This document shows, one piece after another, positions 4,710 to 57,655 of a stretch of DNA of 64,000 bases. The notes below the pieces were generated by a model. That model had not been told where the DNA came from. It searched no databases and worked only from the letters and a program-made list of their open reading frames with translations. Position 1 is the stretch's first letter; each line of letters starts with the position of its first letter. Position numbers and translations under genes: made by a program. Source of the stretch: Candidatus Woesearchaeota archaeon (GTDB lineage: Archaea; Nanobdellota; Nanobdellia; Woesearchaeales; GW2011-AR15); the NCBI GenBank assembly GCA_038874655.1, contig JAVZBY010000001.1, positions 52,292 through 116,291 on the forward strand, given 5' to 3'.

Positions 4710-5306
4710 TTAATTAATTTTTGCAACAATCTCTTCTTCATCAATTTTTATGAAATCAATAAGTTGTTTTTTTTTTAATTTTTCTATGTATCTATAAAAT
4801 GTTGCTTTTGAACATAAATTCTCTTGATCAACAATAATCTCTTTTATATCAGAAGTACTATAATTTTTTTTTTCAGCCAAGCTCAAAATTCTGTTTATTA
4901 TAATATTTTTTCTTTTTTTATTGATTTTTTCTATGAATTTATTATTTTTCTTTTCTTTTTTCAGCGCACTTTCAACAGCTTCTTTTACAATTATTTTAAT
5001 AACTTCTAAATTTAATTCATTATATTTATTTGGATTATTACTCATAATTTTATTGTTTTCAATTTGATTAGAAAAATTCTCTTTATTTTCACTTAAAATC
5101 TCATGATTATTAATAAAGATGGCATCATTATTATTAATTTTTTTTAAAATTTTTTCTTCTTGAGAAACTTTTTCAGATAACTTTTCTTTTAATATATAAT
5201 TTTCTTTTTTTAAATTTTCAATCTCTAATCTTAATTTTGTAATATCTTCTTTTATTCTCGCAAAAGACTCTATAAGTGCATTTCTATCAATTTCACCCCC
5301 AACCAT
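4710..5306 (-). CDS. Coiled-coil + C-terminal winged-helix DNA-binding protein adjacent to candidate origin
   Basis: N-terminal heptads (SFARIKEDITKLRLEIENLKKEN); C-terminal HTH-like STSDIKEII..CSKATFYRYIEKL followed by a beta wing. Confidence 0.75.
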   Translation of the reverse strand: MVGGEIDRNALIESFARIKEDITKLRLEIENLKKENYILKEKLSEKVSQEEKILKKINNNDAIFINNHEILSENKENFSNQIENNKIMSNNPNKYNELNLEVIKIIVKEAVESALKKEKKNNKFIEKINKKRKNIIINRILSLAEKKNYSTSDIKEIIVDQENLCSKATFYRYIEKLKKKQLIDFIKIDEEEIVAKIN

Positions 5307-5349
5307 GAAAAATTAAATTATTAATCCCTTTTTAAATATTTCTAAATTT

Positions 5350-5510
5350 TGATATTTTTATGATACTAATATGATAATAAAATGAAAATTATTGATACAA
5401 AAATGAGACAAAAAATATTAAAATTTCCATAGGAAATAAAGGGGTGTCTCAATCTAATATTGAGACGAAAAAGATTCATTTTTATAAGAAAATTGATACA
5501 AAAATGATAC
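5350..5510. repeat. 11-bp-periodic TGATAC/TGAGAC repeat array with one inverted pair
   Basis: Cores start at 5350, 5361, 5372, 5383, 5393, 5404, then 5461, 5494, 5505; exact 16-mer ATTGATACAAAAATGA at 5391 and 5492; inverted repeat GTCTCAAT-5 nt-ATTGAGAC at 5446-5466. Confidence 0.85.
5425..5445 (+). promoter_or_regulatory. Origin recognition box (ORB) with G-string
   Basis: TTCCATAGGAAATAAAGGGGT matches the archaeal ORB pattern TTCCAnnGGAAA..GGGG. Confidence 0.75.
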
Positions 5511-5546
5511 TTTATTTATAAATACTTTTAAAAAAAGCATAATTTA

Positions 5547-5559
5547 ATTTCCTATGCAA
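5547..5559 (-). promoter_or_regulatory. Inverted mini-ORB (no G-string)
   Basis: Reverse complement TTGCATAGGAAAT differs by 1 nt from the ORB core TTCCATAGGAAAT. Confidence 0.6.
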
Positions 5560-5684
5560 TATAAAGCAAAGAATAAAATTAATTAAAATAATTTTTAAAT
5601 AAGGAAAACTTCTTTGTTGATATTTTACTTTTTAATTAATATTATTTAACTGCTAATACATGTAAAAAATAAGAGGTGGTGTTT

Positions 5685-6089
5685 ATGGATTGCGTATTTT
5701 GTAAAATAATTGAAAATAAAATACCTTCTTCAAAGATATATGAAGATGATTCAGTAATAGCTTTTTTAGACATAGCACCTGTTCATAAGGGCCATACTTT
5801 AGTTGTTCCAAAAAAACACTCGGAAAATATGCTAAAAGATGATGATGAAGATTTAAAAAAATGTATTGTTGTTTCAAAAAGATTAGCTAACGCGATTTTA
5901 AAAGCAACAAATGCAGATGGAATTAACTTAATAATAAACACTATGCCTGCTGCTGGACAAGTCGTAATGCATACACATTTTCATTTAATTCCAAGATATA
6001 AAAATGATGGCTTAAAACATTGGCCTCAAGGAAAATATGAAAACAATGAAATGGAAAGCATTAAAAAGAGGATTTTAGAATTGATGTAA
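5685..6089 (+). CDS. hit: HIT family hydrolase
   Basis: DCVFCKI, GHTLVVPKKH, AGQVVMHTHFHLIPR; ATG at 5685 follows GAGGTGG SD. Confidence 0.95.
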   Translation: MDCVFCKIIENKIPSSKIYEDDSVIAFLDIAPVHKGHTLVVPKKHSENMLKDDDEDLKKCIVVSKRLANAILKATNADGINLIINTMPAAGQVVMHTHFHLIPRYKNDGLKHWPQGKYENNEMESIKKRILELM

Positions 6090-6136
6090 TAAAATAAATT
6101 AATTTAATAAATATTATTTTTTTAACTATCTAAAAA

Positions 6137-6241
6137 CTACATTCTAAAAAAAGGATTTTCTTTTTCTTCAATTACAGATAAAATTCTGCCGTTAAGATCT
6201 CTTATTATCAAGCTGTCTGCACTTGGTTTTTTTAATAACAT
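6137..6241 (-). CDS. Unannotated 34-aa small protein MLLKKPSADSLIIRDLNGRILSVIEEKENPFFRM
   Basis: ATG at 6241 preceded by GAGGAGG SD; higher GC than flanks; below ORF-track cutoff. Confidence 0.55.
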   Translation of the reverse strand: MLLKKPSADSLIIRDLNGRILSVIEEKENPFFRM

Positions 6242-6549
6242 TTTAACGCCCTCCTCAAGCTTTTTTTATCTTTATTTTGTTTTTATTTTACTATTTTCAT
6301 ATTTATAAACTAATAAGCAATTAGTATACTTTTTTATATACTAATATATCGGACATATTTAAATACTTTTCGTTTTTTTAATTTTAAGAAATAAAAAAAC
6401 CACTTTTTTGTTCAATAAATATTTTAATTCTAACAATAAATAGATTAATTTCTTAATAAAAAATTAATAATAAAACTTAATATAATAAAATTACAATTAT
6501 ACAAGAAAAAATATTTAAAAAATATACAATTAAAAAATTGAAAAGTTCA

Positions 6550-6945
6550 TTAATTTAATCCTAAAGCAGTTTTAAGTTCTTCACTTGGTTGCCAGGGTGG
6601 TTCAAATGTAATTTCTATTTTTACAGTATCTATTTCTTTAACCTCCTCTTTTATTGCTGACTCAATCAAATCCATAAGCATAGGACCATATGGACATAGA
6701 GGAGTAGTAAAAGTCATTGTTATCTCAACTCTATATTTATTAAAACTATTTTTTTCTTTTGTTTTATTACTTTTTTCTAATTTGCTTGTTTTTTTATTCT
6801 CTTTAATATCTAATTTATAAATTAAACCTAAGGTATAAACATCAAGACCTAACTCAGGATCATCAACTCTTTTTAAAACATCAACAACTTTATCTCTAAT
6901 TTGATTTATTTCTTCATGATTATTATCTTGTGATAAGCCACCCAT
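6550..6945 (-). CDS. DUF59/SufT-type Fe-S cluster assembly protein
   Basis: VDDPELGLDVYTLGLIY, MTFTTPLCP, FEPPW. Confidence 0.92.
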   Translation of the reverse strand: MGGLSQDNNHEEINQIRDKVVDVLKRVDDPELGLDVYTLGLIYKLDIKENKKTSKLEKSNKTKEKNSFNKYRVEITMTFTTPLCPYGPMLMDLIESAIKEEVKEIDTVKIEITFEPPWQPSEELKTALGLN

Positions 6946-7087
6946 AATGAATCACCAACACTATAAAATAAAATTAGTTTTATATAATTTATGTTAAAGT
7001 CCTAAACCAATTTTAAACAAAATTATTTATTATTATTTAGTTGATTTATTGAAAAACTATTTATACTAGTTCTCTTTAAATTATAGT

Positions 7088-8596
7088 ATGCAATTAGAAA
7101 AAATAGAGAGATTTATAGAAGATTTCATCATATTTTATTTAATCACAACAAAATTTATGCAATATTTCGGATTTATATCAATTTTTGAAAAAATTGGATT
7201 ATACAGAGAATTTTTTGAATTTGTTGATATTATTGTCTCAATGACAGGATTAGCTTATGTTTTATATAAATCAAGTTTATCTAGTATCTTTTTTGGTACA
7301 AAAAACAAGTTTTTTGACTTTTTTTCAATTTTTTTTTATTTTTTTCTCATTGTTAATAAATTTATAGAATTTAATTATGTTTTAGCTTCAAAAGGCATTT
7401 GTTCATTAGAAAATAGGTTTTTAGCACCTCTAATATGTTACATAGCAAATCCCTTGAATAGTGATTTTCTAATAAATACTGGTTTTTATATAGGAACAAT
7501 TGGCTTAATTTTATTAACTCTTTATGCGACATTTAAAATAAATATTTCTGATAAAAGCATATTAAATGCTTTACATGAAGACAATAAAACTAAAAAATTA
7601 ATAAAATTCATCAGCTCTTTTTTTGTTATATTTGGGTTTTACATTATTTTTTTCAATTTTATAAGTGAATGGTTTACTAGAGTTTTGGATGCTCCAATTA
7701 TGTTAATAGCATTATTAATTTATTTTATTAAATTTCATGGAAAAGCGAATGAAGCAGAAACTATTATATTTAAAGTAAGTTCCTCTGTTGAGAATCTAAT
7801 AGAAAATTTTGTTAATCTTTTTCATGATAGAAAAACTATTTTTTTAGGCATATCCTTAATGCTTGTTTTACATTTAATAAGCGATTTAGCTATATTTATA
7901 ATACCCTATAATTTTGGCGTTGGTAATAATTATGTAATTGAATCATTAGAAGATGAAAAACATCTTTCAATAATAGAGCATTTTAATAAAGATTTAGAAA
8001 AAGGTCATAATCCAATTCTGCTTTTTATTGGATACTTTTTAAACACAATTGGTACTTTTTATTTAATGTTTTTTCCGCTTTTTATTTGGTTTGTGGTTTA
8101 TGATAACCTTACTAACAAAAAACAAAGAAATTTTCCAAACATATTAATTGCAATATTTTTTTCTTGTTTAATCTTTATGGAAGCAATGCCTACCTATAAA
8201 ATAACAAGTTTAGTAAATGAAAATTTAATTGGAACAGATATTCAAACACAATCCTTATTAACTAATGATACAAATTTAACTTTGATACTAATTTTAGATT
8301 TTCTTGTGTTTTTTGTTGTATTAATTTTAATAAATAAACCCTTATTCAAAGATATAGCATTCTTTATTATGACAATAATAACCTTAGGTTTTTTTGGAAT
8401 ATATGTTTATTATTATTTTATAAGTATATTTACATATTTTATTAGTTTGTTGCAATATTACTTAACAAAATACATGATATATAATCTATTATTAAATCTT
8501 ATCTTCTTAGTTTTAATTACTGTATTTTACATAGGTAGTTATTTAAGCTTTTTAATTTATGTTTTCAAAGAAGATAAAAAAGAAAATTTAAATTAA
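7088..8596 (+). CDS. Polytopic membrane protein of unknown function
   Basis: 502 aa with more than 10 hydrophobic segments. Confidence 0.75.
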   Translation: MQLEKIERFIEDFIIFYLITTKFMQYFGFISIFEKIGLYREFFEFVDIIVSMTGLAYVLYKSSLSSIFFGTKNKFFDFFSIFFYFFLIVNKFIEFNYVLASKGICSLENRFLAPLICYIANPLNSDFLINTGFYIGTIGLILLTLYATFKINISDKSILNALHEDNKTKKLIKFISSFFVIFGFYIIFFNFISEWFTRVLDAPIMLIALLIYFIKFHGKANEAETIIFKVSSSVENLIENFVNLFHDRKTIFLGISLMLVLHLISDLAIFIIPYNFGVGNNYVIESLEDEKHLSIIEHFNKDLEKGHNPILLFIGYFLNTIGTFYLMFFPLFIWFVVYDNLTNKKQRNFPNILIAIFFSCLIFMEAMPTYKITSLVNENLIGTDIQTQSLLTNDTNLTLILILDFLVFFVVLILINKPLFKDIAFFIMTIITLGFFGIYVYYYFISIFTYFISLLQYYLTKYMIYNLLLNLIFLVLITVFYIGSYLSFLIYVFKEDKKENLN

Positions 8597-8635
8597 GTTT
8601 TTTAGTTATTACTTTTTTTAATTCATTTTATTATT

Positions 8636-9049
8636 TTAATATCTTCTCTGTTGAAAAGAATAGTTTTTTTCTGTTTCTTGTTTAGCCATATGCTCTAAAT
8701 TTACTAATCTTTGATTAATTGCATCTAAACTGGCTTTTAAATAATCTAACTTTGCAGAAATCAATTCTAAATCTTTTTGTAATGAAGAATTTTGATGTTC
8801 ATATACTTCATTATTATCATGATACATAGAATTCATTCTTTCTTGTCTTATATTTTCACCCAATGGCATTCTCATTCTAGGATCTAATTGCTCTTGATGA
8901 TTACTAAAATTTGGTGTTGATTCTAAACCTTGATTAAAATTTTGTTCATTAAAAGTTTCAAAATTTGGTTTATCTTCTAATGGTGGAAAAACTAAATCAT
9001 CTTTTTTTTTAAAAGGATTTAAATTACTTAGTGTTTCAAAAATACTCAT
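8636..9049 (-). CDS. Hypothetical protein: N-terminal amphipathic helix, disordered middle, C-terminal coiled coil
   Basis: MSIFETLSNLNPFKKK start (ATG 9049 preferred over 9067); KDLELISAKLDYLKASLDAINQRL heptads. Confidence 0.7.
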   Translation of the reverse strand: MSIFETLSNLNPFKKKDDLVFPPLEDKPNFETFNEQNFNQGLESTPNFSNHQEQLDPRMRMPLGENIRQERMNSMYHDNNEVYEHQNSSLQKDLELISAKLDYLKASLDAINQRLVNLEHMAKQETEKNYSFQQRRY

Positions 9050-9140
9050 ATCTTTATGTAGAAACATTATACTTTATTAATCTTATGTTTTTTAAGAAAA
9101 AAAGTATAAAAAAATAAAACTAAATAAAAAAATTAAAGAA

Positions 9141-10136
9141 TTATCTTCTTTTTCTCATATACAATAAACCAATTCCACTTACTAAAATTGCAAAACCAAA
9201 TGTTATTGTGCTAAACTCAGGAACATAGTAAAATTTACAACTATTAGAGCATTCGTCATCATCTATATCATTACCATCATCACATTCTTCACCAGCTCCT
9301 TCTTGTACTATGCCATCACCACAATAAGTGCAAGCATATAAATCAAATTCTGCAGTAGTTCTACATTTACCCTCATTTAAATATCCCATAAATTGATTAT
9401 TTGTACAAATAAAGTCTGTTTCTTCTCCATTTGGCTCACAAGTTTTACTAGAGCCATCATTACAGATAGAATCACCACAATAATTTATAACAACATTAAA
9501 TCTACAATTATTATTACACTGATCATTATCTATATTATTGCCATCATCACACATTTCTCCTGCATCTCTTTGTAAAATACCATCCCCACAATAAGTACAA
9601 GCAAAATCTCCTGAAGTTCTACAAACACCATTAGCTAAATCACCAGTATAAACATTATTAACACATTTCATATCTTTTGTAGGGCCATTAGGCTCACAAG
9701 TTTTACTAGAGCCATCATTACAGATAGAATCACCACAATATGGCTTGGGTTGTTCTGGAATATTACAACCGCATGTAAACTTTTGTCCACAATTTGAACA
9801 TTCTTCTGTTCTGGTATGATGTCCGGGTTTACCAGCATTATCTCTTAAACATCTTTCAACACAGCCTTGCTCATCACAACCACAAGGTTGCCATCCTGAT
9901 TGACAATCTAAATAACAACTACTTCCTCCTGCGTTTATCTCTTCTTGTACACATTGAAATGCACCATTAACTTTTCTGCATGACCACATTTTACCCTCAG
10001 AAGGATCACCAGCTGCATTACATTCAGAACCACTTTCACAACTTCCTGAGCATGAAAAAGCTAAAGTAAAAGATGTTATAAATATTAAAAATAAGCTCAT
10101 TAATAACAGGATTTTAACTTTTTTTTTGATTTTCAT
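9141..10136 (-). CDS. Secreted cysteine-rich surface protein with CGDG..E.CDDGN repeats and PEF-CTERM sorting signal
   Basis: Signal peptide; repeats YCGDGILQ..GEMCDDGN and YCGDGIVQ..GEECDDGN (Myxococcus Cys-rich/DUF4215-like); VPEF + TM + RKRR tail. Confidence 0.85.
   Translation of the reverse strand: MKIKKKVKILLLMSLFLIFITSFTLAFSCSGSCESGSECNAAGDPSEGKMWSCRKVNGAFQCVQEEINAGGSSCYLDCQSGWQPCGCDEQGCVERCLRDNAGKPGHHTRTEECSNCGQKFTCGCNIPEQPKPYCGDSICNDGSSKTCEPNGPTKDMKCVNNVYTGDLANGVCRTSGDFACTYCGDGILQRDAGEMCDDGNNIDNDQCNNNCRFNVVINYCGDSICNDGSSKTCEPNGEETDFICTNNQFMGYLNEGKCRTTAEFDLYACTYCGDGIVQEGAGEECDDGNDIDDDECSNSCKFYYVPEFSTITFGFAILVSGIGLLYMRKRR
9433..9740. repeat. Exact 50-bp intragenic direct repeat (9433-9482 and 9691-9740)
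   Basis: GGCTCACAAGTTTTACTAGAGCCATCATTACAGATAGAATCACCACAATA twice, 258 bp apart; encodes YCGDSICNDGSSKTCEP. Confidence 0.9.
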
Positions 10137-10305
10137 TTTGACCTTAAAAGTTTTTTAAATGATTTAACTACTATTAGGTAGTTAATTTATATTTATAAAT
10201 TTTTCTATTTTATATTTGTTTGATAAGGTATTTTTTATTATAGATAAATTAAACAATTAAATCAAAGAAAATATTTTTATTAAAACATGATTTCTCTATT
10301 TAAAA

Positions 10306-11445
10306 ATGAGAATTTTAATTGTAGGAAGTGGGCCTGCTGGAAATTTTTCTGCTTATTTACTAGCAAAATCGGGGCATGAGGTTTTTGTTTTTGAAAAAGA
10401 TAAAGAAATTGGAAAGCCAATCCAATGTAGTGGTATTTTAAGTGATTATTTTTTAAACTTTTTAAAACCTAATAAGGAATTTTTGTTAAATGAAATTAAA
10501 AGAACAAGAATATATGCTCCAAATGGTAGATATATTGATGCAAAAATCAAAAAAAATTATGTTATTTGCAGATATAAATTTGATAATTATTTGGCTAATT
10601 TAGCTAAAAAAGAAAAAGTCGTTTATTTTTTAGAACATAGTTTTAAAAGATTTATTATAAAAAAAGAGAATAATGATGAAAAAATTGTTGCTTTTTTTAA
10701 TAACAATGGAAAAGAAGTAAAATTCAAAGCAGATATATTAATCGGTGCTGATGGCCCTCTTAGTGAAGTTGGAAAGCAGAGTGGTTTAATTATTGAAAGA
10801 CAAAATTTTATTGGAACACAAATACAAGCTTATATGAAAAATGATAATGTTGTAGAGTTTTATCCTTATATAGGATGTTATGCATGGATAATCCCAGTTA
10901 ATAAAGATATTGTAAGAATAGGTGTTGTTAGTTATAAAAAGAGTGTTGAATTGTTTAAAAAATTTGTATCCGAAAAAATGAAAGATTATGAAAATAAGAT
11001 TATTGAAAATCAATCTGGAATAATACCTATATTTAATCCTAAGATTAATTTACAAACAAAAGATAGAAGAGTTTTTTTAATTGGGGATGCTGCTACGTTA
11101 GTTAAAGCTACAACAGGTGGTGGCATAAATCAATCTTTAAAAGCAGCTACTATTTTGGCTGATTGCATAAATAATAAAAAAGATTATAATAAAGAAATAA
11201 GGAAAAGAATGTTTTTTGAGTTAAAAGTGCATTTAATTGCTCATAAGATTATGCAAAAGTTTAAGGAAGATGATTGGAATTATTTAATTGATGTTTTTTC
11301 TAAAAAAGAAATGAAAAAAATTCTTTATAATGAGAGTAGAGATAATTTAGTAAAAATGCTTTTTAGTGTTATTACAAAAGAACCTAAATTAATTAAATTT
11401 TTAAGGTATTTATCTAAAGAAGAAATTCTGATTTTACTTTCATAA
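10306..11445 (+). CDS. Geranylgeranyl reductase family FAD oxidoreductase
   Basis: GSGPAG, PIQCSG, IGADG, YAWIIP, LIGDAA..VKATTGGGI. Confidence 0.9.
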   Translation: MRILIVGSGPAGNFSAYLLAKSGHEVFVFEKDKEIGKPIQCSGILSDYFLNFLKPNKEFLLNEIKRTRIYAPNGRYIDAKIKKNYVICRYKFDNYLANLAKKEKVVYFLEHSFKRFIIKKENNDEKIVAFFNNNGKEVKFKADILIGADGPLSEVGKQSGLIIERQNFIGTQIQAYMKNDNVVEFYPYIGCYAWIIPVNKDIVRIGVVSYKKSVELFKKFVSEKMKDYENKIIENQSGIIPIFNPKINLQTKDRRVFLIGDAATLVKATTGGGINQSLKAATILADCINNKKDYNKEIRKRMFFELKVHLIAHKIMQKFKEDDWNYLIDVFSKKEMKKILYNESRDNLVKMLFSVITKEPKLIKFLRYLSKEEILILLS

Positions 11446-11555
11446 GAATTTCTTAAAAACTTTGTTTAGGTGTTTATTTTTATATTAATTATTAGTTAAT
11501 TTTAGATTTGTGCTTTTGCATAATATTTTTAAATTAATTTTAATTCATTATTGAT

Positions 11556-11894
11556 ATGATTCCTATAAATCAAAGACAGATGCAGCAAGCAATGAAAAGA
11601 TTGGGTGTTAATCAAAAAGAGATTGATGCAATAGCTGTAATAATTAGAACTAAAAAAGAAGATATTATTATAAGAAATCCTTCTGTGCAAAAAATTAATA
11701 TGATGGGGCAAGAGAGTTATCAAATATCTGGAGAGGAAGAAATAAGGCCTCTTGAAGAAGAAATGAAAATTAATGAAGAAGATATAAAAACAGTAATGGA
11801 ACAAACAAACGCAAATAGAGAAGTTATAATTGAAACTCTAAAAAAGCATAAAGGGGATTTAGCTTCTACAATATTAGAATTACAAAATAGGTAA
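11556..11894 (+). CDS. nac: Nascent polypeptide-associated complex protein
   Basis: RQMQQAMKRLGV, IRNPSV, YQISG, C-terminal UBA-like EEDIKTVMEQT..GDLASTI. Confidence 0.93.
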   Translation: MIPINQRQMQQAMKRLGVNQKEIDAIAVIIRTKKEDIIIRNPSVQKINMMGQESYQISGEEEIRPLEEEMKINEEDIKTVMEQTNANREVIIETLKKHKGDLASTILELQNR

Positions 11895-11950
11895 AACTAA
11901 CAATAAAAATATAATTATTAAAATAAATTATTAAAAAATCAATTAATAAT

Positions 11951-12981: not shown

Positions 12982-13764
12982 ATGACTAAGTTTATTGTTA
13001 TTGCATCAAGTAAAGGTGGTGTTGGTAAAACAACTACAGCCATAAATTTAGGAACTGCTCTAACTCAATTTAGCAGAGATGTCATTTTAGTTGATGCTAA
13101 TTTAAGTACACCTAATGTTTCTTTATACTTAGGAGCACCAAATATTCCTATAACTTTACATGATGTTTTAAACAAAAATAAAAAAATAACAGATGCATTG
13201 TATATGAGTAGTCATGGTTTAAAGATTATACCTGCAAGCATATCTATAAAGGAAACAAATAAAATTGATTATAAAAAATTGGAAAATGTTATAAAAAGCT
13301 TATCTGGCTTAGCTGAGTTTGTAATTATAGATACTTCTGCAGGTTTAACCGATGAAGCTATTAGTGGAATTAAATTAGGTGATGAAATTATTGTTGTTAG
13401 CACACCTGATTTACCTGCTGTAACTGATGCACTAAGAACAATAAAAAAAGCAAAAGAATTAGGAAAAAAGGTTAGTGGTGTTATTCTAACAAGAGCTTAT
13501 GAAGATGAATTAGAACTAAGCAAAAAGGATATTGAAGCGATTTTAGAAACTGAGGTTATAGCTATTGTTCCTGAAGACGAAACAATGAGGGAAGCTGTTA
13601 GAATGAAAAGCCCTGTAACACACAGTCATCCTAATGCGCCTTCTTCTATAAGTTATAAAGAATTAGCTGCAAAATTATTGGGTGAAAAATATATTGCAAG
13701 CTTAGAACAAAAAGAAGAAAAAGGTTTTGATTCATTATTGAAAAAATTGGGATTAAGTAAATAA
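12982..13764 (+). CDS. minD: MinD/ParA-family ATPase (MinD)
   Basis: Deviant Walker A SKGGVGKTT, LVDANL, IIDTSAG; C-terminal amphipathic GFDSLLKKLGL. Confidence 0.9.
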   Translation: MTKFIVIASSKGGVGKTTTAINLGTALTQFSRDVILVDANLSTPNVSLYLGAPNIPITLHDVLNKNKKITDALYMSSHGLKIIPASISIKETNKIDYKKLENVIKSLSGLAEFVIIDTSAGLTDEAISGIKLGDEIIVVSTPDLPAVTDALRTIKKAKELGKKVSGVILTRAYEDELELSKKDIEAILETEVIAIVPEDETMREAVRMKSPVTHSHPNAPSSISYKELAAKLLGEKYIASLEQKEEKGFDSLLKKLGLSK

Positions 13765-13777
13765 AAAAGTGGTGAGA

Positions 13778-14185
13778 ATGAATTTATTTGAATGGACAAA
13801 TGCTTATATTGATAGTATAAATTTTTTTAAAAAGAATTTACTAAAAAAGGAGATTATAAATAAGAACTTAATAAAATGTGAATACAAGGATAAAAAAGAG
13901 GTTTTCTATTATATTAGTGATGTTATTGATGATTCCTGCATAGAATTTATTAAAAATAATTTTGATAAAAAAATAGTAATTGTAAGTTTAAATAGAAAAG
14001 AAAATATGTCATTGTTAATTAATTATTGGGAAGCATTTATAAAAAATAAAGATTTAAAATTTATTTTTTCGAATCCTAAAGAAAATTTATTTTGGGCTAT
14101 TGTTCCATATACACATAATTTAATTTCCGGTAATTTAAAACTAGGAATAAAAACTTTATTTGAAAGTATTCCTTATTGCGAGTGA
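13778..14185 (+). CDS. Hypothetical protein, co-oriented immediately after minD
   Basis: ATG 13778 after GGTGAG SD; 135 aa. Confidence 0.7.
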   Translation: MNLFEWTNAYIDSINFFKKNLLKKEIINKNLIKCEYKDKKEVFYYISDVIDDSCIEFIKNNFDKKIVIVSLNRKENMSLLINYWEAFIKNKDLKFIFSNPKENLFWAIVPYTHNLISGNLKLGIKTLFESIPYCE

Positions 14186-48348: not shown

Positions 48349-48367
48349 TTTCATTTTAATATATATT

Positions 48368-48672: not shown

Positions 48673-48700
48673 ATTTCTATTTTTATTTTTAAAAAATTTT

Positions 48701-49859: not shown

Positions 49860-50049
49860 AGAGTTAATTAATTAAATAATATTAATAAATTTTACTAATT
49901 TTAATAATTAGAATTCAAAAAGATATGAAAAATATAAATTAAAAATAAAATAATAACAAACAAATAAAAAATTGAAAAAATATAAATAAAATATACTAAA
50001 GGTAAATAAAACCAAAATCTTAAATAGTTATATTTTATTTTAAAAAAAG

Positions 50050-51804
50050 ATGAAAAATAAGGAGATGTTTTTTTTTATATTATTTATTTTAGTAGTAATT
50101 AATTTAAATAGTGTTTACTCTAAATCTGGAAGTATTAAACTATTGGCTGTTTCTGAGGAAAGTGAAAAAGGTAGTATTGCAAATGTTAATTTAGAAATAA
50201 AAGAAGGATCTGGTAGAGTTTTTATTGATTCTTATCCTTTATCAAAGATAGACACACAAATTTCCACAAGATTTGCTAAAGAGGTTGCATGTAATTTTTT
50301 GGAATTAGATTGCAGCAATTATGACTTTTTTTATACTATTAAAGCTAATAGTGCTATTGTTGGTGGTCCTAGCGCAGGAGCTGCAATTTCTGTTTTAACA
50401 GTAGCTGTTTTAAGTGATTTACCTATTGATGATAAAACTACAATGACAGGAACAATAAATAGTGGCGGCATTATTGGGCCAGTTGGTGGGGTTTTACCAA
50501 AAATAAGCGCTGCTTCTGAAGTTGGTATTAAAAAAGTTTTAATACCTAAATATAGTGGTTTAAATGAGAGTAATATTAGTGATTTAGAAAAAAAATATAA
50601 AATAAAAATAGTACAAGTTTCTTTTTTAGAAGAAGCATTAAAAGAGATTACCGGTAAAGATTTTGAAAAAAATGTTGAAATTAATATAAGTACTTCCTAT
50701 TTAGAAACTATGAGTAAAGTTGCTAAGGATATGTGCAATAGAGCAAATTCTTTATATGAAGAAAACGAAATAACTTATAAAATTAAGAAAGGTGATGAAG
50801 AATTTAAAAATGCTAGTTTAATTTATTTACAAAGAGGTATAAATGCAACAAAAGATAATGAATTTTATAGCGCTGCTAGTTATTGCTTTGGAAGTGCGTT
50901 AAATTCACAATACCTAAAATTAAAAAATGAATTAAAAAGTGAAAAAAGTGAGGAAATAGATAAAATAAAGTTAATAAAAAAAATTAATGATACAAAACAA
51001 AGAATTAATGATTATAATTTATTTATAAAAAATAGGGAATTAAAAACTATAACTGATTTAGAAATTTATATGATAGTAAATGATAGATTAATTGAAGCTG
51101 ATGAAAGATTAAAAAATGCATTAGAAACAAATAACACTAATCAAAGTGTTTATAACTTAGCTTACGCTATTGAAAGATTAAATAGTGCTATTTCTTGGAC
51201 TAATTTTTTTGATATGAAAGGAAAGAAATTTAGTATTAATAAAGCCACATTAGATGAAAGTTGTTTAAGGAAAGTTTCTGAAGTAGAAGAAAGATTACAA
51301 TATTTAAAATTGTTTTTACCTGCGGAATTAGAAGATATAGAGAAATCAGTTAAAGATTCATATGAGAATTATAACAATCAAAAATCAGAATTATGTTTAT
51401 ATAAGGCAAGTATTGCAAAAGCAAGAGTTAATTTAATATTAAATACTATGGCAATTAATAACGAGGACATAAAAAATTTGATTGATGATAGAAGTTTTTT
51501 AGTAAAGAAAATAATTTCAAAACAGAATAAAAGAGATATTTTTCCTGTTTTAGCTTATAGTTATTATGAATATGGAAACTCATTAAAAAATAACGATGAA
51601 TACTCTGCTCTATTGTATTTAGAATATGCATTAGAATTAGGTAATTTAGATATTTATTTTGAGAAAAGTAAATTGCCAATTAATTTGCCTAAAATAGAAA
51701 AAAATTATATCTATATTTTTGTGGCTGGCTTAATTTTTGGAATTCTTTTTGGAATGGCTTTTATGTATGATATTTATCATTTAAAAAGAAAATTAAAAAA
51801 ATAA
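50050..51804 (+). CDS. Secreted/membrane-anchored archaeal Lon-like (S16) serine protease
   Basis: Signal peptide; GSGRVF, GGPSAG, TGTINSGG.IGPVGGV..K (Ser-Lys dyad); C-terminal TM. Confidence 0.9.
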   Translation: MKNKEMFFFILFILVVINLNSVYSKSGSIKLLAVSEESEKGSIANVNLEIKEGSGRVFIDSYPLSKIDTQISTRFAKEVACNFLELDCSNYDFFYTIKANSAIVGGPSAGAAISVLTVAVLSDLPIDDKTTMTGTINSGGIIGPVGGVLPKISAASEVGIKKVLIPKYSGLNESNISDLEKKYKIKIVQVSFLEEALKEITGKDFEKNVEINISTSYLETMSKVAKDMCNRANSLYEENEITYKIKKGDEEFKNASLIYLQRGINATKDNEFYSAASYCFGSALNSQYLKLKNELKSEKSEEIDKIKLIKKINDTKQRINDYNLFIKNRELKTITDLEIYMIVNDRLIEADERLKNALETNNTNQSVYNLAYAIERLNSAISWTNFFDMKGKKFSINKATLDESCLRKVSEVEERLQYLKLFLPAELEDIEKSVKDSYENYNNQKSELCLYKASIAKARVNLILNTMAINNEDIKNLIDDRSFLVKKIISKQNKRDIFPVLAYSYYEYGNSLKNNDEYSALLYLEYALELGNLDIYFEKSKLPINLPKIEKNYIYIFVAGLIFGILFGMAFMYDIYHLKRKLKK

Positions 51805-51928
51805 AGATTATAATTATAAAAATTATGACTATAAAATAATTAATAAAATAATTTAAAAATAAGATAATTTAATAATTTAAAAAAGCAATTTTTATAAATA
51901 AACATTTTTTCTTTAACTTAAAAGCCAA

Positions 51929-52037
51929 AAACAGCAGATTAGCTTTTTAAAGTTAAAATAAAATTTAAAAAGGACTGCTGTTTGAAACTGCTGAGGCGAG
52001 AAAAATGCAGTTGCTAACTGCTATTTCTATTGCCTTA
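51929..52037 (+). promoter_or_regulatory. Candidate structured 5' leader of rps2 (two hairpins)
   Basis: AAACAGCAG/CTGCTGTTT enclosing CTTTTTAAA/TTTAAAAAG; GCAGTT/AACTGC enclosed by TGAGGC/GCCTTA; TATA-like box at about 51891-51900. Confidence 0.55.
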
Positions 52038-52107
52038 ATTATAATCAAAATATATGTAAAAAATTAATAAAAAGTTAATAAAAAGGATAAAAAACATAGG
52101 TGAGAAA

Positions 52108-52695
52108 ATGACAGAAGAATCATTATTGGTGCCAAATGATGTGTATTTAAAAGCAGGAATACATATTGGAACAAAATTTAAAAGTAAGTTTATGGAAAAT
52201 TTTATTTATAAAACAAGGCCAGATGGATTATCTGTTTTAAATGTACAAAAGATTGATGAAAGAATAAAATTAATGGCAAATATGCTTTCTAAATATGAAC
52301 CGAAGGATATTTTAGTTGTTAGCAGAAGAGAAAATGGTTGGCAAGCTGTTAAATTGTTTGCAAAGGCAATTGGTTGCAAATTTTATGCTGGAAGATATCC
52401 GCCAGGAGCATTAACAAATCCAAGTTTAAAAACTTTTATAGAGGCAAAAATTGTTGTTGTAACAGATGCCTGGCCAGATAGAAATGTAGTATTAGATGCT
52501 TTAAAAGTTGGAATACCTGTAATTGCTTTATGTGATACAAATAATCAAGCAAATAACATTGATTTAGTTGTCCCATGTAATAATAAAGGAAAGAAAAGTT
52601 TAGGCTTATTATTTTATATTGTGGCAAGAGAATACATGAAATTAAGAAATATGGGTGAATTAAAGATTACAATGGAAGAGTTTATGGCTGAATAA
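52108..52695 (+). CDS. rps2: 30S ribosomal protein uS2 (archaeal)
   Basis: YLKAGIHIGT, RPDGL, GRYPPGALTNP, ALCDTNN, PCNNKG. Confidence 0.97.
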   Translation: MTEESLLVPNDVYLKAGIHIGTKFKSKFMENFIYKTRPDGLSVLNVQKIDERIKLMANMLSKYEPKDILVVSRRENGWQAVKLFAKAIGCKFYAGRYPPGALTNPSLKTFIEAKIVVVTDAWPDRNVVLDALKVGIPVIALCDTNNQANNIDLVVPCNNKGKKSLGLLFYIVAREYMKLRNMGELKITMEEFMAE

Positions 52696-52726
52696 ATATT
52701 TAAAAAATAACTTTTTCTTTTTCTTT

Positions 52727-53575
52727 ATGTTTTTAATTTCTGTGTATCAAGCTGAGCAATTATTAAAAGATTTAGAAACAAATAAAGAAGAAAGTTTAAT
52801 TTCTTTAGATTTAGGATTAAGTAATTCAGTTGTTAAAATTGATAGAAAGGAAAGTAAATTTATTTTTCCAGATGAACAAGTTTTAGGGTTAGAGAAAATA
52901 AAGAAGATTATTAAAAAAGATACAATTTGTTTTTATATTAAAAATAATGACATTTTTCCAGTTTCTATTTTTTCTGAAGAGACAAATAACTATTATAAAT
53001 TAGTTCCAACTGGTTTATGTAATTGGCCAACTCTTGAAATTTCTGGAATTCGGATGCATGTTACAAAAAAATATGGTCCAAAAGAAGACACTGAAGAAAA
53101 AATTTCTTTTATTGCTCCTTGTGTTGGTGCTGTTTTAGATACATGTACAGGATTAGGTTATACTGCAATAATGGCTGCAAAAACAGCTAATTTAGTTTTT
53201 ACAATTGAAAGAGATAAAAATGTAATTGAAATTGAAAAAATTAATCCTTATTCTAAAGAACTTTTTACAAATGAGAAAATAAAAAGAATAATTGGAGATT
53301 CTTTTGAAGAGATTAAAAAGTTTAAAGCTTGTTATTTTGACAGAATTATACATGATCCACCTAGAGTTGCTTTATCTCCTTTGTTATATAGCCAGGAATT
53401 TTACAATGAATTGTTCAGAGTTTTAAAATACAAAGGCAAAATATTTCACTATACTGGCGATCCTGGAAGTAAAAAAGGTTTAGACATAAGAGCTGGCATA
53501 ATAAAAAGATTCGAAAAAGCTGGCTTCAAAAATATTAAAAGGGTTTTTAATGGAATTAGTGCTGAAAAGATATAA
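52727..53575 (+). CDS. SAM-dependent methyltransferase (archaeal COG2521-like)
   Basis: PTLEISGIRMH, VLDTCTGLGYTA, IIHDPPR, FHYTG.PG. Confidence 0.88.
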   Translation: MFLISVYQAEQLLKDLETNKEESLISLDLGLSNSVVKIDRKESKFIFPDEQVLGLEKIKKIIKKDTICFYIKNNDIFPVSIFSEETNNYYKLVPTGLCNWPTLEISGIRMHVTKKYGPKEDTEEKISFIAPCVGAVLDTCTGLGYTAIMAAKTANLVFTIERDKNVIEIEKINPYSKELFTNEKIKRIIGDSFEEIKKFKACYFDRIIHDPPRVALSPLLYSQEFYNELFRVLKYKGKIFHYTGDPGSKKGLDIRAGIIKRFEKAGFKNIKRVFNGISAEKI

Positions 53576-53583
53576 AAATAATC

Positions 53584-54264
53584 TCAAATAAAAATACCAT
53601 TTTCTTTAATTTCATAAAAAATAGTTTTTCCTACTAAAGATTCATCTAATTTATGTTTAATTAATTTTGCTTGTCTTTTTTTGTCATCTATCTTATTTAA
53701 TTCTATTATGGTTTGACACATATTTGAAAACATTTTGTTAGCAATCATTTTAAAATTCTTGTTGTCAGAAAAATCTGCTTTTACTTGATTAGTTATTAAA
53801 ACAATTTTATCTTTGTCTCTAGCAATTCTAATTAAAGATTGTATTTGTTGTCCCATTAACATATTAATTTTTTTTGGTTCTTTATTTAGTTCTAATTTGT
53901 AGAAATTGGATATTGAATCGATAATTAGAATAAAAAATTTTGATGTTTTGGAATTATATATTTTAGAAATTTGTTCATGCAGCTCAAAAAAATTAGTTGG
54001 TTGAAGTAAGAATAAATAATCTAAATAATTTTTTGTAAATTCTTTTTCCTTTTTTATTAATTGATTAAATCTATCAATACTGAATGTTTTTTCTGTATCA
54101 ATAAAAATAACTTTTTTTTGATTTTTTATAGCTGAAATTGCTGCCAATAAACATGTTGTTGTTTTTCCTGAGGAGGCATTTCCATAAATACCAGTAATAA
54201 AACCAGAATGGAATTCATCTATTAAATAACTAATTGCTTGATTGTTTGGATTTAAGGTTATCAT
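53584..54264 (-). CDS. radB: DNA repair protein RadB
   Basis: IYGNASSGKTT, FIDTE..FS.DR, IIDSI, LITNQV, KH motif; no N-terminal HhH domain. Confidence 0.85.
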   Translation of the reverse strand: MITLNPNNQAISYLIDEFHSGFITGIYGNASSGKTTTCLLAAISAIKNQKKVIFIDTEKTFSIDRFNQLIKKEKEFTKNYLDYLFLLQPTNFFELHEQISKIYNSKTSKFFILIIDSISNFYKLELNKEPKKINMLMGQQIQSLIRIARDKDKIVLITNQVKADFSDNKNFKMIANKMFSNMCQTIIELNKIDDKKRQAKLIKHKLDESLVGKTIFYEIKENGIFI

Positions 54265-54347
54265 TTTTTATCTTTTATTTTTTTAATAAAATATTATTAA
54301 AAAAGAAATTTATAAAATTTGCTAATTCTTTATTTTTTAAATCTTTT

Positions 54348-55526
54348 TTAGGAATTTATTACCTTTTTATAAAAAGATTCTACTTCTTTTGCTATCTTCT
54401 CCCAATCATAATCTTTGATATAATCTAATTCTTTTATTTTTTCTTTATAAAGGATTTTATCTGTTAAAAGTTGTTTTAATTTTTTACTTAAATCTAAATA
54501 ATTGTCTGGTTTAAAAAATAATCCACCTCTTTTGTTTGTTATTTCTATGAAAGGTGGAATCTCTGTGCAAACAAAGGGTATTTTTAATGCTATTGCTTCT
54601 AATAATACAATTCCAAAACCTTCCACATTACTGGGAGAACAAAAAACATGACTTTTTTTTATTTCATTTAAAACTTCTTCATGAGATTTTAAAAATCCTA
54701 AAAAACTTATGTTTTTTTCTAAATTTAAATTTGAAGAAAGTTTTTTTAAATTATTTAATTCTTGTCCTTGACCTATTATTTTTAGTTTTATATCTGGAAT
54801 TTCCTTTTTTAACAAAGAAATAGATTTAATTAAGATATCTACTTTTTTTGTTTTTATTAATCTGCCTACATAAATAATTGTTGGTCTTTTCTCTTTTTTT
54901 ATTTGATTTTTATTTATTAAATTAAATTTTTCCAAATCAATTCCATTTGAAATTACTTTAATTTTATGTTCATTTACTCCATTTTGAATTAATCTTTTTT
55001 TTGTGAAATTACTAACAGAAATAAAAGCATCAAAGTTTAATTTTAATATTAATCTTTCATAAACTTCATATGGAAGTGCAATTATCCCTTTATTTTTTAT
55101 CCATTCGTTTATCCATGTTTCATGATAAGTTGCTATTATTTTTTTTTTTAGTTTTCTTGCTATTTTATAGCCTGGCAAATAAGTAGTAAAATTATATGCA
55201 TCTATAATATCTATATTTTTGAAACTTTTCGCTTGATTTACTAATGCACATGCAAAATTTAACCTAGATAAAAAACCTGCATTATTAGAATATGGATGAT
55301 GATCCCCAACTCGATAAACTAAAAAACTATGTTTTATTTTTTTATTTTTATCAATAAATTTAAACTCTGTTTTTCGTTCTAAATTATTTCGCCAAGATGT
55401 TAAGATATAAACACTATGTTTTTTTGATAGTTCTTTTGCTAAATAAAATGCTCTTGATTCAACTCCACCTGTAATGTCTGAACTTGTTGTTTCAGGAAAA
55501 TATTCAGATAAAATTAAAATATTCAT
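54348..55526 (-). CDS. GT4 glycosyltransferase
   Basis: GGVESR, ISNGID, YVGRL..TK, EGFGIVLLEA. Confidence 0.92.
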   Translation of the reverse strand: MNILILSEYFPETTSSDITGGVESRAFYLAKELSKKHSVYILTSWRNNLERKTEFKFIDKNKKIKHSFLVYRVGDHHPYSNNAGFLSRLNFACALVNQAKSFKNIDIIDAYNFTTYLPGYKIARKLKKKIIATYHETWINEWIKNKGIIALPYEVYERLILKLNFDAFISVSNFTKKRLIQNGVNEHKIKVISNGIDLEKFNLINKNQIKKEKRPTIIYVGRLIKTKKVDILIKSISLLKKEIPDIKLKIIGQGQELNNLKKLSSNLNLEKNISFLGFLKSHEEVLNEIKKSHVFCSPSNVEGFGIVLLEAIALKIPFVCTEIPPFIEITNKRGGLFFKPDNYLDLSKKLKQLLTDKILYKEKIKELDYIKDYDWEKIAKEVESFYKKVINS

Positions 55527-55545
55527 TTTATTTCAATTTGTGTTA

Positions 55546-55872
55546 TTATTTTTTTTTTCTTAGTGCGTTTTCTCTAACTAATTTTGTTATTTCCATTTCA
55601 ACTTCTTCTAATTTAACATATAGTCTAAATAATAAATAAAATAATATTACAATACTTGAATAAACTAAAACATCTACACCTCTGCCTATGCCTATAAATG
55701 AAGCAACTTTGGTTAAAATATTTGGAAAAAAGACAACGAAGATTAAACCTATCCAAATTCCTAACCAAAAAAATAATTCTAGTAATGTGATTTTTTTGTC
55801 TTTTGCTCTTAATATTGCTCTGCTGGCAGCAAATGAAAAAAATAGTATTGCTATTATTTGGATTATTGTCAT
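55546..55872 (-). CDS. DUF2304 family membrane protein
   Basis: FWLGIW, GIGRGVD, ITKLVRE; follows a GT2 gene. Confidence 0.88.
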   Translation of the reverse strand: MTIIQIIAILFFSFAASRAILRAKDKKITLLELFFWLGIWIGLIFVVFFPNILTKVASFIGIGRGVDVLVYSSIVILFYLLFRLYVKLEEVEMEITKLVRENALRKKK

Positions 55873-55909
55873 TTTTACCTCCTTTAATCAATTCCTTAGA
55901 TATTTACTT

Positions 55910-56596
55910 TTATTTCAATAATTTTTTAAGTAGCATTTTAAAACCTAATACAAAGCTTCTATCCCAAGATTGACCTTTAAGAACAGAATATTTACTATAA
56001 ATAACTGTAATTGGAACTTCTTTATATGTTAGTCTGTGTCTCATAATTTCTGAAAAAAATTCACCTGCATGTTCCATCCTGTCAGAGGTTATTTCTATTT
56101 TTTTAGCTGCTTCTAATGAAATAGCTCTAAAACCGCATTGTGAATCTGTAACTTTTATACCATATAAAAGATACACAACAATTACACCTATTTTTAAAAT
56201 AATTTTTTTAAAAAAAGGTATGTTTATTGCCTTTCCTAAAAATCTTGAACCTAAGGTTATGTCTGCTTCTTTATTGACAATTGGTTTTATCATATTTTTT
56301 ATATCTCTTGCTAAAAATTGACCATCTGCATCAAAAGTTATAATAATATCTGCATTTTTTTTGATTGCATATTCAATACCTGTTTTTAAGGCTGCACCTT
56401 GACCTCTATTTATTATGTGTCTTAAAGCAATAACCTTTTTTTTTAATGCTATTTCATAGGTTTTATCAGATGAGCCATCATCAACAACAATTATATTATG
56501 ATAACCTTCTTTTTTTAAATCTTCAATTACTTTAGAAATAGCTTTTTCTTCATTATAAGCTGCAATGACAACAAAAATTTTTAATTTTTCTTTCAT
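55910..56596 (-). CDS. GT2 glycosyltransferase (DPM1-like)
   Basis: AYNEE, VVDDGSSD, NRGQGAA, TFDADGQ, GSRF, TDSQCGFRA. Confidence 0.93.
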   Translation of the reverse strand: MKEKLKIFVVIAAYNEEKAISKVIEDLKKEGYHNIIVVDDGSSDKTYEIALKKKVIALRHIINRGQGAALKTGIEYAIKKNADIIITFDADGQFLARDIKNMIKPIVNKEADITLGSRFLGKAINIPFFKKIILKIGVIVVYLLYGIKVTDSQCGFRAISLEAAKKIEITSDRMEHAGEFFSEIMRHRLTYKEVPITVIYSKYSVLKGQSWDRSFVLGFKMLLKKLLK

Positions 56597-56697
56597 CTTT
56601 TAGAATAAATTATTTTTTAATATTTAATAGTTATTTTTTATGAAACTTTTTGCTTTAGAAAAAATTATAAAGGAATTCTCACTTTTTATATTTGAAA

Positions 56698-57468
56698 ATG
56701 GGGGTCTTTGATAAATTATTTAAAAAAGAAATTAAAGAAATCCAAAATAATTCTAGCAATATACATCAGGAACTACATAATGAACTAAAAAAACATCATG
56801 AGAGATTAGAAAAATTAAATGAATATAGTCAAAATTTACATAAATATATTTATTATATTGAACATAGTAATACTAAACATAAAAAAGAGATAATTGAACA
56901 TATTAATAATGTTAATAAATGGATTGAATATTTAAATGAGAGTCATAATAATCTAAAAAGAGAATTAAATGATTTTAAAATAAATATACGAAAAAGGTTA
57001 AAAGAAGATCTTGCTTATTATCATGAATTAATTGAAGAATATCTCACTTTTAAGATTAACAGCTTAGAAAACAAACTAGAAGAATATAAAAAAGAACACA
57101 CAAAAATTGTTGAAAATAAAGAAAAAAACGAAAAAATAGATATTGATACATTAAAAAAAAGTATAAAAGATGAAATTTTGAAAGAAATTTCAATTAATAA
57201 TATAAAGAATACAAGTGAACTTAAAGAAAATCTAGAATTATCAAAACCAGAAAAAGATATTTTAAGACTAATGTTCAATGAAGGAAAACCTATGACCTAT
57301 GAACAAATTGCTGAAAAATTAAATAAATCTGTTAATAGTATAAGAGTTTATATGAATAATATTAAATTAAAAAAACCAATTGTAGAAGAATTTTTAACAA
57401 GTAATGGAATAAAAGTATTTAGTATAAAAAATTCTGAAATGGTTAAAACATTATTTAATTCTTATTGA
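56698..57468 (+). CDS. N-terminal amphipathic helix + long coiled coil + C-terminal winged-helix protein
   Basis: MGVFDKLFKK start; heptad-rich middle; LSKPEKDILRLM..PMTYEQIAEKLNKSVNSIRVYMNNIK HTH followed by a wing. Confidence 0.8.
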   Translation: MGVFDKLFKKEIKEIQNNSSNIHQELHNELKKHHERLEKLNEYSQNLHKYIYYIEHSNTKHKKEIIEHINNVNKWIEYLNESHNNLKRELNDFKINIRKRLKEDLAYYHELIEEYLTFKINSLENKLEEYKKEHTKIVENKEKNEKIDIDTLKKSIKDEILKEISINNIKNTSELKENLELSKPEKDILRLMFNEGKPMTYEQIAEKLNKSVNSIRVYMNNIKLKKPIVEEFLTSNGIKVFSIKNSEMVKTLFNSY

Positions 57469-57504
57469 AAAGTTTTAATAATTAAACTTTATTTTTAAAT
57501 TTGG

Positions 57505-57655
57505 CATTATATAATGCATTATAATGACATTATATAACATTATAATGCACATTATGTGTTTTCACGACTACATTATATAATATTATAACACGCATTATAA
57601 CACATTATAATGCGCATTATATAACATTATAATGCGCATTATCCTCATTATATAA
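57505..57655. repeat. About 11-bp-periodic CATTAT / palindromic CATTATAATG array
   Basis: Cores at 57505, 57517, 57528, 57538, 57550, 57571, 57581 (TATTAT), 57593, 57603, 57615, 57625, 57637, 57646. Confidence 0.93.

Follow-up and report, generated by a model that had tools for sequence, protein, structure and literature searches.

For the Orc1/Cdc6-dependent origins of archaea, a 13-bp mini-origin recognition box (mini-ORB), TTCCAGTGGAACT, has been described, in which the TTCC and GAA motifs are invariant (PMC1904270). In Sulfolobus, the oriC3 protein WhiP, a Cdt1-like protein with tandem winged helices, has been reported to bind motifs immediately downstream of its own gene (PMC3607249). 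The UBP-ucm system of Sulfolobales consists of a non-Orc protein that reads a short motif inside an origin; UBP is an abundant nucleoid protein of 111 amino acids with more than 300 genomic sites, and the report describing it raises the question whether analogous factors act at the origins of other archaeal lineages (PMC12141716). Among segregation systems, parC of plasmid R1 carries two sets of five iterons, and SegB binds a centromeric sequence adjacent to segAB. Here, two gene-array modules are compared with these systems. Both were found in a 64,000-nucleotide stretch of DNA (the window) from Candidatus Woesearchaeota archaeon (GenBank assembly GCA_038874655.1, contig JAVZBY010000001.1), designated G000:C1:52292-116291, where G000 is the genome under study (1.26 Mb in 17 contigs, 24% G+C) and other G and L numbers denote the genomes of relatives and their loci; the database names of these relatives are Woesearchaeota and Nanoarchaeota, and the DPANN label fits only by way of these names. 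Module 1 comprises gene 1, encoding the protein p1, and array 1; module 2 comprises gene 2, encoding p2, and array 2. The reading that we favor, and that we consider probable by a small measure, is that p1 and p2 would bind these arrays as locus-specific readers tied to the Orc1 system, with module 1 functioning as an origin-type locus and module 2 as a centromere-like landmark.

To our knowledge, next to nothing has been charted of the replication origins of DPANN archaea or of how their chromosomes segregate. The one study of complete genomes that was found rotates the genomes to orc1/cdc6, and its text uses none of the terms "ORB", "origin recognition" or "GC skew". In the literature searched, nothing was found on Woesearchaeota origin recognition boxes, and no title among those listed on DPANN Orc1 origins dealt with arrays of this kind.

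An earlier note on this DNA had proposed that both genes encode a coiled coil with a C-terminal winged helix-turn-helix domain, that each lies close to an array phased at about 11 bp, and that both belong to one family with a common module layout. The AlphaFold2 models of both proteins show long helices followed by a winged helix, and the arrays start 44 bp from the start codon of gene 1 and 37 bp past the stop codon of gene 2. The note's claim that the window holds no other such arrays also stood, as the three further 5-copy hexamer clusters in it are non-periodic. The single family did not hold, since homology between gene 1 and gene 2 was undetectable (BLASTP E=2; probability 1.5% when the two family alignments were compared with hhalign). 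No paralogue of either gene was found in G000, and each gene founds a separate family that has the architecture in common with the other and no detectable ancestry. The common layout failed as well: array 1 consists of direct iterons upstream of its gene that run into the promoter, whereas array 2 consists of palindromes past the stop codon. Across the 1.26-Mb assembly, only one other hexamer cluster of 10 copies in 170 bp was found (C4:46471-46643). This cluster, which lies outside the window, is made up of the hexamers TCATCA/CATCAT and may be a coding repeat.

Iterons and an origin recognition box upstream of gene 1

The region upstream of gene 1 contains an ORB enclosed by iterons. The features of module 1 are as follows.

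4710..5306, minus strand: gene 1, encoding p1 (198 amino acids), with an N-terminal conserved motif, a predicted coiled coil and a predicted C-terminal winged helix
5330..5339, minus strand: putative TATA box of gene 1, TTTAAATA-type, seen as a conserved AAA..TTTAWATA block in 14 aligned upstream regions
5350..5510, minus strand: array 1, GT(C/A)TCA iterons (TGAKAC on the plus strand) at 5350, 5361, 5372, 5393, 5404, 5461, 5494 and 5505
5425..5450, plus strand: ORB TTCCATAGGAAATAAAGGGG (5425-5444) followed by TGTCTC, with a TTCC-N3-GGAAA dyad and a G-string, 0 mismatches
5446..5466, no strand assigned: palindrome GTCTCAAT-ctaat-ATTGAGAC, abutting the ORB G-string and conserved as CGTCTCA-N(about 10)-TGAGAC-ACCCC

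The ORB pattern is rare in these genomes. With at most one mismatch, the pattern TTCCWNWGGAAANNNNGGGG was found at only two places in G000, namely in array 1 (C1:57.7 kb) and about 60 bp upstream of orc1-1, the orc1/cdc6 gene at C1:179713 (TIGR02928, 412.9 bits). ORBs are present upstream of orc1-1 in six of six genomes, with the same consensus as the ORB of array 1, and the orc1-1 loci show clear inverted ORB pairs 110-150 bp apart. In the complete genome G016, the strict pattern matches exactly twice, at orc1-1 and in the p1 array. The p1 array is accordingly the only other place in these genomes that resembles an Orc1-1 site; a third strict match, in G349, lies inside a permease-like open reading frame (ORF) and was taken as chance. 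Among 20 p1 loci, an ORB with its G-string was found by regular expression at 14, and the other six carry variant cores such as TTCCACTGGAG. No ORB boxes were found upstream of the orc1-2 paralogue at six loci, and the orc1-1 upstream regions of six genomes contain no GTCTCA. In G010, the p1 array lies 17 kb from orc1-2. The canonical origin beside orc1-1 in G000 (L035:1200-1392, C1 about 179.4-179.6 kb) has two inverted ORB-like boxes flanking about 140 bp of AT-rich DNA, with a divergent helix-turn-helix (HTH) gene (262 amino acids) upstream, a layout common to five relatives.

Array 1 itself contains TGATA(C) cores at 5350, 5361, 5372, 5393, 5494 and 5505, TGAGAC cores at 5404 and 5461 and, in inverted orientation, GTCTCA at 5446; the successive spacings of its iterons are 11, 11, 21, 11, 57, 33 and 11, and the last iteron is immediately upstream of the putative TATA box. 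In an alignment of the upstream regions of 14 genomes, the order of elements is identical throughout, with the boxes invariant while their flanks diverge. This order starts with two or three GTCTCA boxes, followed by CGTCTCA-N(about 10)-TGAGAC-ACCCC-ttt-ATTTCCTnTGGAA, another two GTCTCA boxes at a distance of 11 bp, a TGAGAC/GTATCA pair, one final GTCTCA and the TATA box, which lies about 25 nt ahead of the p1 start codon. At 17 of 21 p1 loci, at least four GTCTCA/TGAGAC sites were found within 400 bp upstream, at a density of 7.5-22.5/kb as compared to 0-4.6/kb elsewhere in the same loci; outside the p1 upstream regions the density is below 2.4/kb except at L031, which is at a contig end. The four exceptions are G000 (three sites plus three GTATCA variants), L031, the distant homologue at L013, and L020, which scored below the threshold from a wrong automated gene start and whose array is visible in the alignment. 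Of 82 same-strand GTCTCA spacings of up to 70 bp, 59 deviate by no more than 1 bp from a multiple of 11 (24 are exactly 11), as compared to a chance expectation of about 27%. Among five whole genomes of relatives (about 7.5 Mb), the doublet GTCTCA-N4-6-GTCTCA was found nine times, and eight of these matches are at the p1 locus, which argues that the target of p1 is a single locus rather than a regulon. In G000, GTCTCA/TGAGAC is under-represented (132 copies compared to about 250 expected from base composition), and in several of the array 1 iterons the sequence has drifted to GTATCA.

The AlphaFold2 model of p1, built from an alignment of 24 relatives (mean predicted local distance difference test score, pLDDT, 82.6), shows helices at residues 8-88 and 100-146, followed by helices at 151-161 and 167-179 and strands at 183-188 and 191-196; the C-terminal part forms the three-helix bundle and beta-hairpin wing of a winged helix. 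All members of the family alignment have the same recognition helix, CSKATFYRY. Pfam matched p1 to FUR below the cut-off (E 2.2e-4). Homologues of p1 were found in 40 of 61 related genomes including G000, and in 35 of the 45 high-quality genomes. The p1 superfamily also includes paralogues whose helix reads CSKSSFYR[IL]L; upstream of their own genes, [AG]TTCCCA iterons recur at multiples of 11 bp, and these arrays contain no ORB. Three of these paralogues (L107, L110 and L111, from G028, G037 and G020) have 5-11 [AG]TTCCCA iterons at exact 11-bp multiples that end at their own TATA box; G037 and G032 each contain a p1 orthologue plus a CSKSSFYR-type paralogue. In the complete genome G035, 140 bp separate a p2-like gene from a p1-like gene in a back-to-back arrangement (L013:1357-2703).

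The position of these iterons brings in the main rival to our reading, that is, that p1 and p2 are plain autoregulatory transcription factors, with the arrays being oversized operators and Orc1-1 acting as a transcription factor at the ORB of array 1, and with no role in replication or segregation. We regard this as doubtful. It fits the overlap with the p1 promoter, where the last GTCTCA or, in the paralogues, TTCCCA iteron is located right at the TATA box, and the paralogue arrays without ORB also speak for it. Moreover, the Foldseek search of both models against the PDB returned generic winged-helix regulators only (ZitR/MarR, Fur, TFE, PadR and SSV1 F-93). Archaeal Orc1/Cdc6 proteins also appear to have roles in transcription (PMC3607249). 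Autoregulation leaves unexplained, however, why, array 1 aside, the ORB pattern is found at the orc1-1 origin only, and the 8-12 sites over 150-600 bp found in the arrays far exceed the needs of repression. Dispersed sites of the kind that a regulon would have were not seen, neither for GTCTCA doublets in the five genomes nor for CATTATAATG, the palindrome of array 2, in G000.

When compared to the Orc1/Cdc6 origins of Sulfolobus and Pyrococcus, array 1 is alike in holding an ORB with the TTCC...GGAAA dyad and G-string, in the consensus of the lineage's own orc1-1; it differs in having a single strong ORB and no orc1/cdc6 gene beside it. It also differs from the orc1-1 origins of its own lineage, which lack GTCTCA iterons, whereas the ORB of array 1 is surrounded by them and adjoins a gene for a predicted coiled-coil winged-helix protein. 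By analogy, module 1 resembles an ORB origin of archaea to which a lineage-specific factor has been joined, and the link to replication initiation that the earlier note had drawn finds support at array 1. Unlike UBP with its more than 300 sites, p1 would have essentially one locus to read, given that eight of nine iteron doublets are found there.

Two further features bound the region on its far side.

5547..5559, minus strand: weak further ORB-core-like element ATTTCCTATGCAA that lacks a G-string, on the side of the HIT gene and read by eye
5676..6089, plus strand: HIT-family gene (Pfam HIT, E 4.9e-27), the divergent neighbour bounding the 369-bp intergenic region

Weak ORB cores comparable to the one at 5547-5559 are present in some relatives, and the HIT-gene neighbour is kept in most of them, to judge by eye from the start of the flank, which is conserved.

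Palindrome arrays of the p2 family and co-variation with the recognition helix

Module 2 consists of a gene and of an array that starts shortly past its stop codon.

56692/56698..57468, plus strand: gene 2, encoding p2 (258/256 amino acids), with a predicted helical hairpin with conserved His/Trp and a predicted C-terminal winged helix
57505..57651, no strand assigned: array 2, with 12 CATTAT cores in overlapping GCATTATA(TA)ATGC-type palindromes, period 10-12, 22-bp double unit

The 12 CATTAT cores run from 57505 to 57646 with spacings of 12, 11, 10, 12, 21, 22, 10, 12, 10, 12 and 9, and the unit is a 10-bp palindrome, CATTATAATG. Tandem Repeats Finder describes the array as 57505-57642, period 22, 6.3 copies, score 121. 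Only five CATTATAATG sites were found in G000, as compared to about 8 expected from composition, and four of the five are located in array 2. The AlphaFold2 model of p2 (alignment of 22 relatives, mean pLDDT 78.4) shows N-terminal helices at residues 4-55 and 59-166 and a C-terminal part with helices at 183-195, 201-208 and 212-225, strands at 229-233 and 239-243 and a helix at 247-253; here too, three helices are followed by a beta-hairpin wing. The recognition helix is SVNSIRVYMN. Pfam matched p2 to Sigma70_r4 (E 1.4e-5), and its match to the ParB model TIGR00180 reached 18.4 bits (cut-off 58.45) and covered the HTH part only.

Among 61 close relatives, 13 contain a homologue of p2, and a profile search across the order detected the family in 58 of 401 sampled genomes, or in 53 of 396 if five unpublished ones are set aside. 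Of 1.84 billion proteins, 168 were retained as family representatives at E<=1e-3. Palindrome arrays of the GCATTATAATGC type start within tens of bases of the stop codon in every one of the seven full-length homologues (L003-L009; tblastn identity 32-49%), and arrays also follow the stop codon at L049-L052. The CATTAT spacings keep the helical register, with 105 of 156 within 1 bp of a multiple of 11. At distant p2 loci, 20 of 27 reach a 7-mer cluster of at least 5 in 250 bp (one unpublished locus excluded), as compared to 13 of 352 random 3.5-kb segments of G000, of which two reach at least 7. Automated gene starts were wrong at some distant loci, and arrays scored as inside genes were re-read by eye. 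The gene-array unit is retained by relatives across the order although neighbouring genes differ between loci.

The core of the p2 arrays is always a 10-bp palindrome and changes together with the recognition helix. Seven core types were counted:

CATTATAATG: recognition helix ..RVYMN
CATTGCAATG: recognition helix ..RVNMN
CGTTATAACG: L058, L059, L062 and L065, with a GTTATAAC core at L010
CGTAATTACG: L011/L068, where the array lies upstream
TAGTCGACTA: L073
CGTCTAGACG: L076 and L079
GGACATGTCC: recognition helix ..SIRNxIYE

The same pattern is found in the p1 superfamily, where CSKATFYRY goes with GTCTCA and CSKSSFYR with TTCCCA. The interpretation of the earlier note is thereby supported on three points: each gene has a cognate array kept in relatives, the sites are in helical register, and the core motif co-varies with the recognition helix, which the note had proposed to check.

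These observations also bear on two of the alternatives. An autoregulator would be poorly served by the p2 arrays, which are located past the stop codon, often between convergent genes, and plain autoregulation therefore fits these downstream palindromes poorly. Site and helix co-evolve fast, and the unit persists while the genes around it change, which is more characteristic of modules of the centromere or iteron kind. A second alternative is that the arrays are neutral products of slippage, or chance clusters in very AT-rich DNA, unrelated to the genes next to them. G000 has 24% G+C and is rich in short, low-score tandem repeats (174 Tandem Repeats Finder rows in the window), and some relatives have copies of their own motif inside the coding linker, which suggests local amplification. 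Such processes would not be expected to leave boxes invariant across 14 genomes with divergent flanks, to recur as a gene-array pairing in different gene neighbourhoods or to yield motifs that change with the recognition helix, and only 2 of the 352 null segments reached a 7-mer cluster of at least 7. We consider slippage or chance extremely improbable. The linker copies were found at L065, L070 and L071, where the cognate motif (CGTTATAAC or AGGACA) occurs at a spacing of about 11 bp both inside the variable coding linker and past the stop codon, so that the array seems to spill into the p2-like gene.

Two neighbouring features complete the locus.

56678..56687, plus strand: leader element CTCACTTTTT, just 5' of the gene 2 start codon, with the same or a close CTCAC(T)-type element in several relatives
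57768..58457, minus strand: FAD/NAD oxidoreductase gene (Pfam), convergent with gene 2 and bounding array 2

The leader CTCACTTTTT differs from the cognate palindrome, and another factor may therefore control gene 2; the element is not a general leader in G000, where 7 of its 42 genomic copies precede an ORF. The oxidoreductase neighbour was also seen, by eye, in the downstream flank of the three closest relatives (L003-L005).

Location of module 2 relative to the orc1-1 origin

The position of orc1-1 was looked for in ten p2-bearing genomes and was on the same contig as p2 in seven and on a different contig in three. In the seven, the distances between p2 and orc1-1 were 6.7 kb (G349), 10.6 kb (G264), 10.7 kb (G314), 14 kb (G011), 54 kb (G182), 71 kb (G000) and 208 kb (G311), that is, 6.7-71 kb in six of the seven, which suggests that module 2 has an origin-proximal position. 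In addition, 5 of 40 p2-family loci carry two direct ORBs in the interval that separates the p2-like gene from a divergent TBP gene upstream of it. In this subfamily (L049-L052 and L057), the TBP has a lysine-rich N-terminal extension and the ORBs are about 85 bp apart; in this group, which comprises three genomes of one genus, orc1-1 is 6.7-10.7 kb away, and the profile search found no p1 homologue.

The ORBs beside one p2 subfamily could also indicate that module 2 is a captured replicon, with an iteron-type origin and p2 as its dedicated initiator, in the manner of WhiP and oriC3. There is a rule that an origin has the gene of its initiator next to it. The layout is similar in that the array is immediately downstream of the gene (PMC3607249), palindrome clusters flank AT-rich spacers at six loci (L006-L009, L061 and L063), and the specificities co-evolve as in Rep-iteron pairs. 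WhiP, however, is a tandem winged-helix protein, whereas p1 and p2 have, in their models, a single winged helix behind long helices, and p2 shows neither an ATPase nor Cdt1-like tandem winged helices. The captured-replicon reading is made less likely by the proximity of module 2 to the orc1-1 origin, as a second origin would add little at the 6.7-15 kb that separate them in four genomes. No relative on a viral contig was found for it either, and no gene resembling an integrase or belonging to another mobile element was seen among the neighbours of either module. We therefore judge a captured replicon to be improbable. IMG/VR contains no relative of either family, and the idea of a viral origin was dismissed on this ground for both. 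Likewise, Rfam searches of both intergenic regions returned only sub-threshold, miRNA-like matches on the palindromes, and a reading of the arrays as known RNAs was dismissed.

In our favored reading, module 2 resembles, by analogy, a centromere with its binding protein. Like parC-ParR of R1 and TubR-tubC, it has helically phased short repeats, often in two clusters, beside the gene of the presumed binding protein. The winged-helix protein TubR was a weak Foldseek match at rank 34; ParR has a ribbon-helix-helix fold. The differences from ParMRC and TubZRC are that no gene for a cytomotive NTPase adjoins the modules, that the modules are chromosomal, and that their proteins have long predicted coiled coils. 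As with ParB-parS and the sites of SegB, a presumably site-specific protein is found near a palindromic target, and p2 is usually origin-proximal; unlike ParB, p2 falls below the TIGR00180 cut-off, and the only ParA/MinD-type gene of G000 is beside neither array, for which reason this gene was set aside as a partner of the modules. It encodes a P-loop ATPase (window 12982-13764; CbiA, ParA, AAA_31 and MipZ matches) and is directly followed by an ORF of 138 amino acids with no known family (13769-14185), the pair being 7.5 kb from array 1.

Searches of NCBIfam, Pfam and the ESM Atlas provided no functional name for p1 or p2 beyond HTH or winged helix, and the nearest ESM Atlas clusters are unnamed Nanobdellota/Woesearchaeota proteins. 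Source names such as "regulator of replication initiation timing" or "response regulator" stem from automatic labelling, and no weight was placed on them. Pfam analysis of ten neighbours on each side of both modules showed housekeeping genes. Among four DNA sequencing runs, the stretch is spanned by the probable source run only, the contigs of the other runs being partial and broken around the repeat.

Proposed roles of p1 and p2

In the mechanism that we propose, p1 and p2 would each probably dimerize through their long N-terminal helices, and the winged helix would read a short core, once per helical turn, in one unique array beside its own gene. As the core is repeated with each helical turn, many protomers would line up on one stretch of DNA, which may allow cooperative binding and oligomerization. 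At module 1, where GTCTCA iterons flank an ORB of the orc1-1 type, we infer that Orc1-1 and p1 may occupy the same region of about 200 bp. Module 1 would then be an origin-type locus, either a second Orc1-dependent initiation site or a site of initiation control, with p1 as its locus-specific factor acting with Orc1-1; given that the TATA box directly adjoins the last iteron, p1 would in addition control the expression of gene 1. Array 2 would be the only dense genomic target of p2 and may represent a centromere-like or origin-proximal landmark coated by p2, whose coiled coils would be free to bridge or tether.

Several observations weigh against this proposal. Iterons that end at a TATA box are equally expected of a plain autoregulator. 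Array 1 has one strong ORB and a weak core that lacks a G-string, as compared to the clear inverted pair around an AT-rich gap at orc1-1, and is not adjacent to an orc1/cdc6 gene, orc1-1 being 122 kb away in G000 and 402 kb in G016. At the sensitivity of the searches, neither p1 (40 of 61 genomes) nor p2 (58 of 401 genomes of the order) is universal. Several distant p1 loci and 7 of the 27 distant p2 loci are under the array threshold, with small arrays seen by eye at some of the latter, and the p1-like and p2-like pair of G035 has no array between or beside its genes. No ParM, TubZ or ParA gene was found among the ten neighbours on each side of both modules. The distances between p2 and orc1-1 are biased to be short because both genes must share a contig, and three of the seven genomes concerned belong to one genus. 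Finally, the cumulative GC skew climbs monotonically over the 295-kb C1 with no turn at array 1, array 2 or the orc1-1 origin; as it does not mark even the canonical origin, GC/AT skew is uninformative here.

A bolder version of the proposal, which we think rather unlikely, is that such array readers, as a class not described before, organize the chromosome in DPANN archaea of the Woesearchaeales type. Here, p1 and its GTCTCA iterons would mark a second origin dependent on Orc1-1, or a switch that controls an origin, with a co-factor specific to the lineage, and p2 with its fast-evolving palindrome arrays would form a chromosomal centromere in which the coiled coil serves as a minimal kinetochore, no gene for a ParA-type motor being adjacent.

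For the biology of this order, module 1 represents a further locus with an ORB, conserved throughout the order and equipped with a dedicated protein, which bears on the question of lineage-specific origin factors. Module 2 is a candidate centromere-like element of the chromosome, and its binding protein would be of a new kind. The natural protein-site pairs, with at least seven palindrome specificities, make binding testable in vitro without cultivation, and, if the bolder version of the proposal is true, these co-evolving pairs would constitute a natural recognition code for this winged helix.

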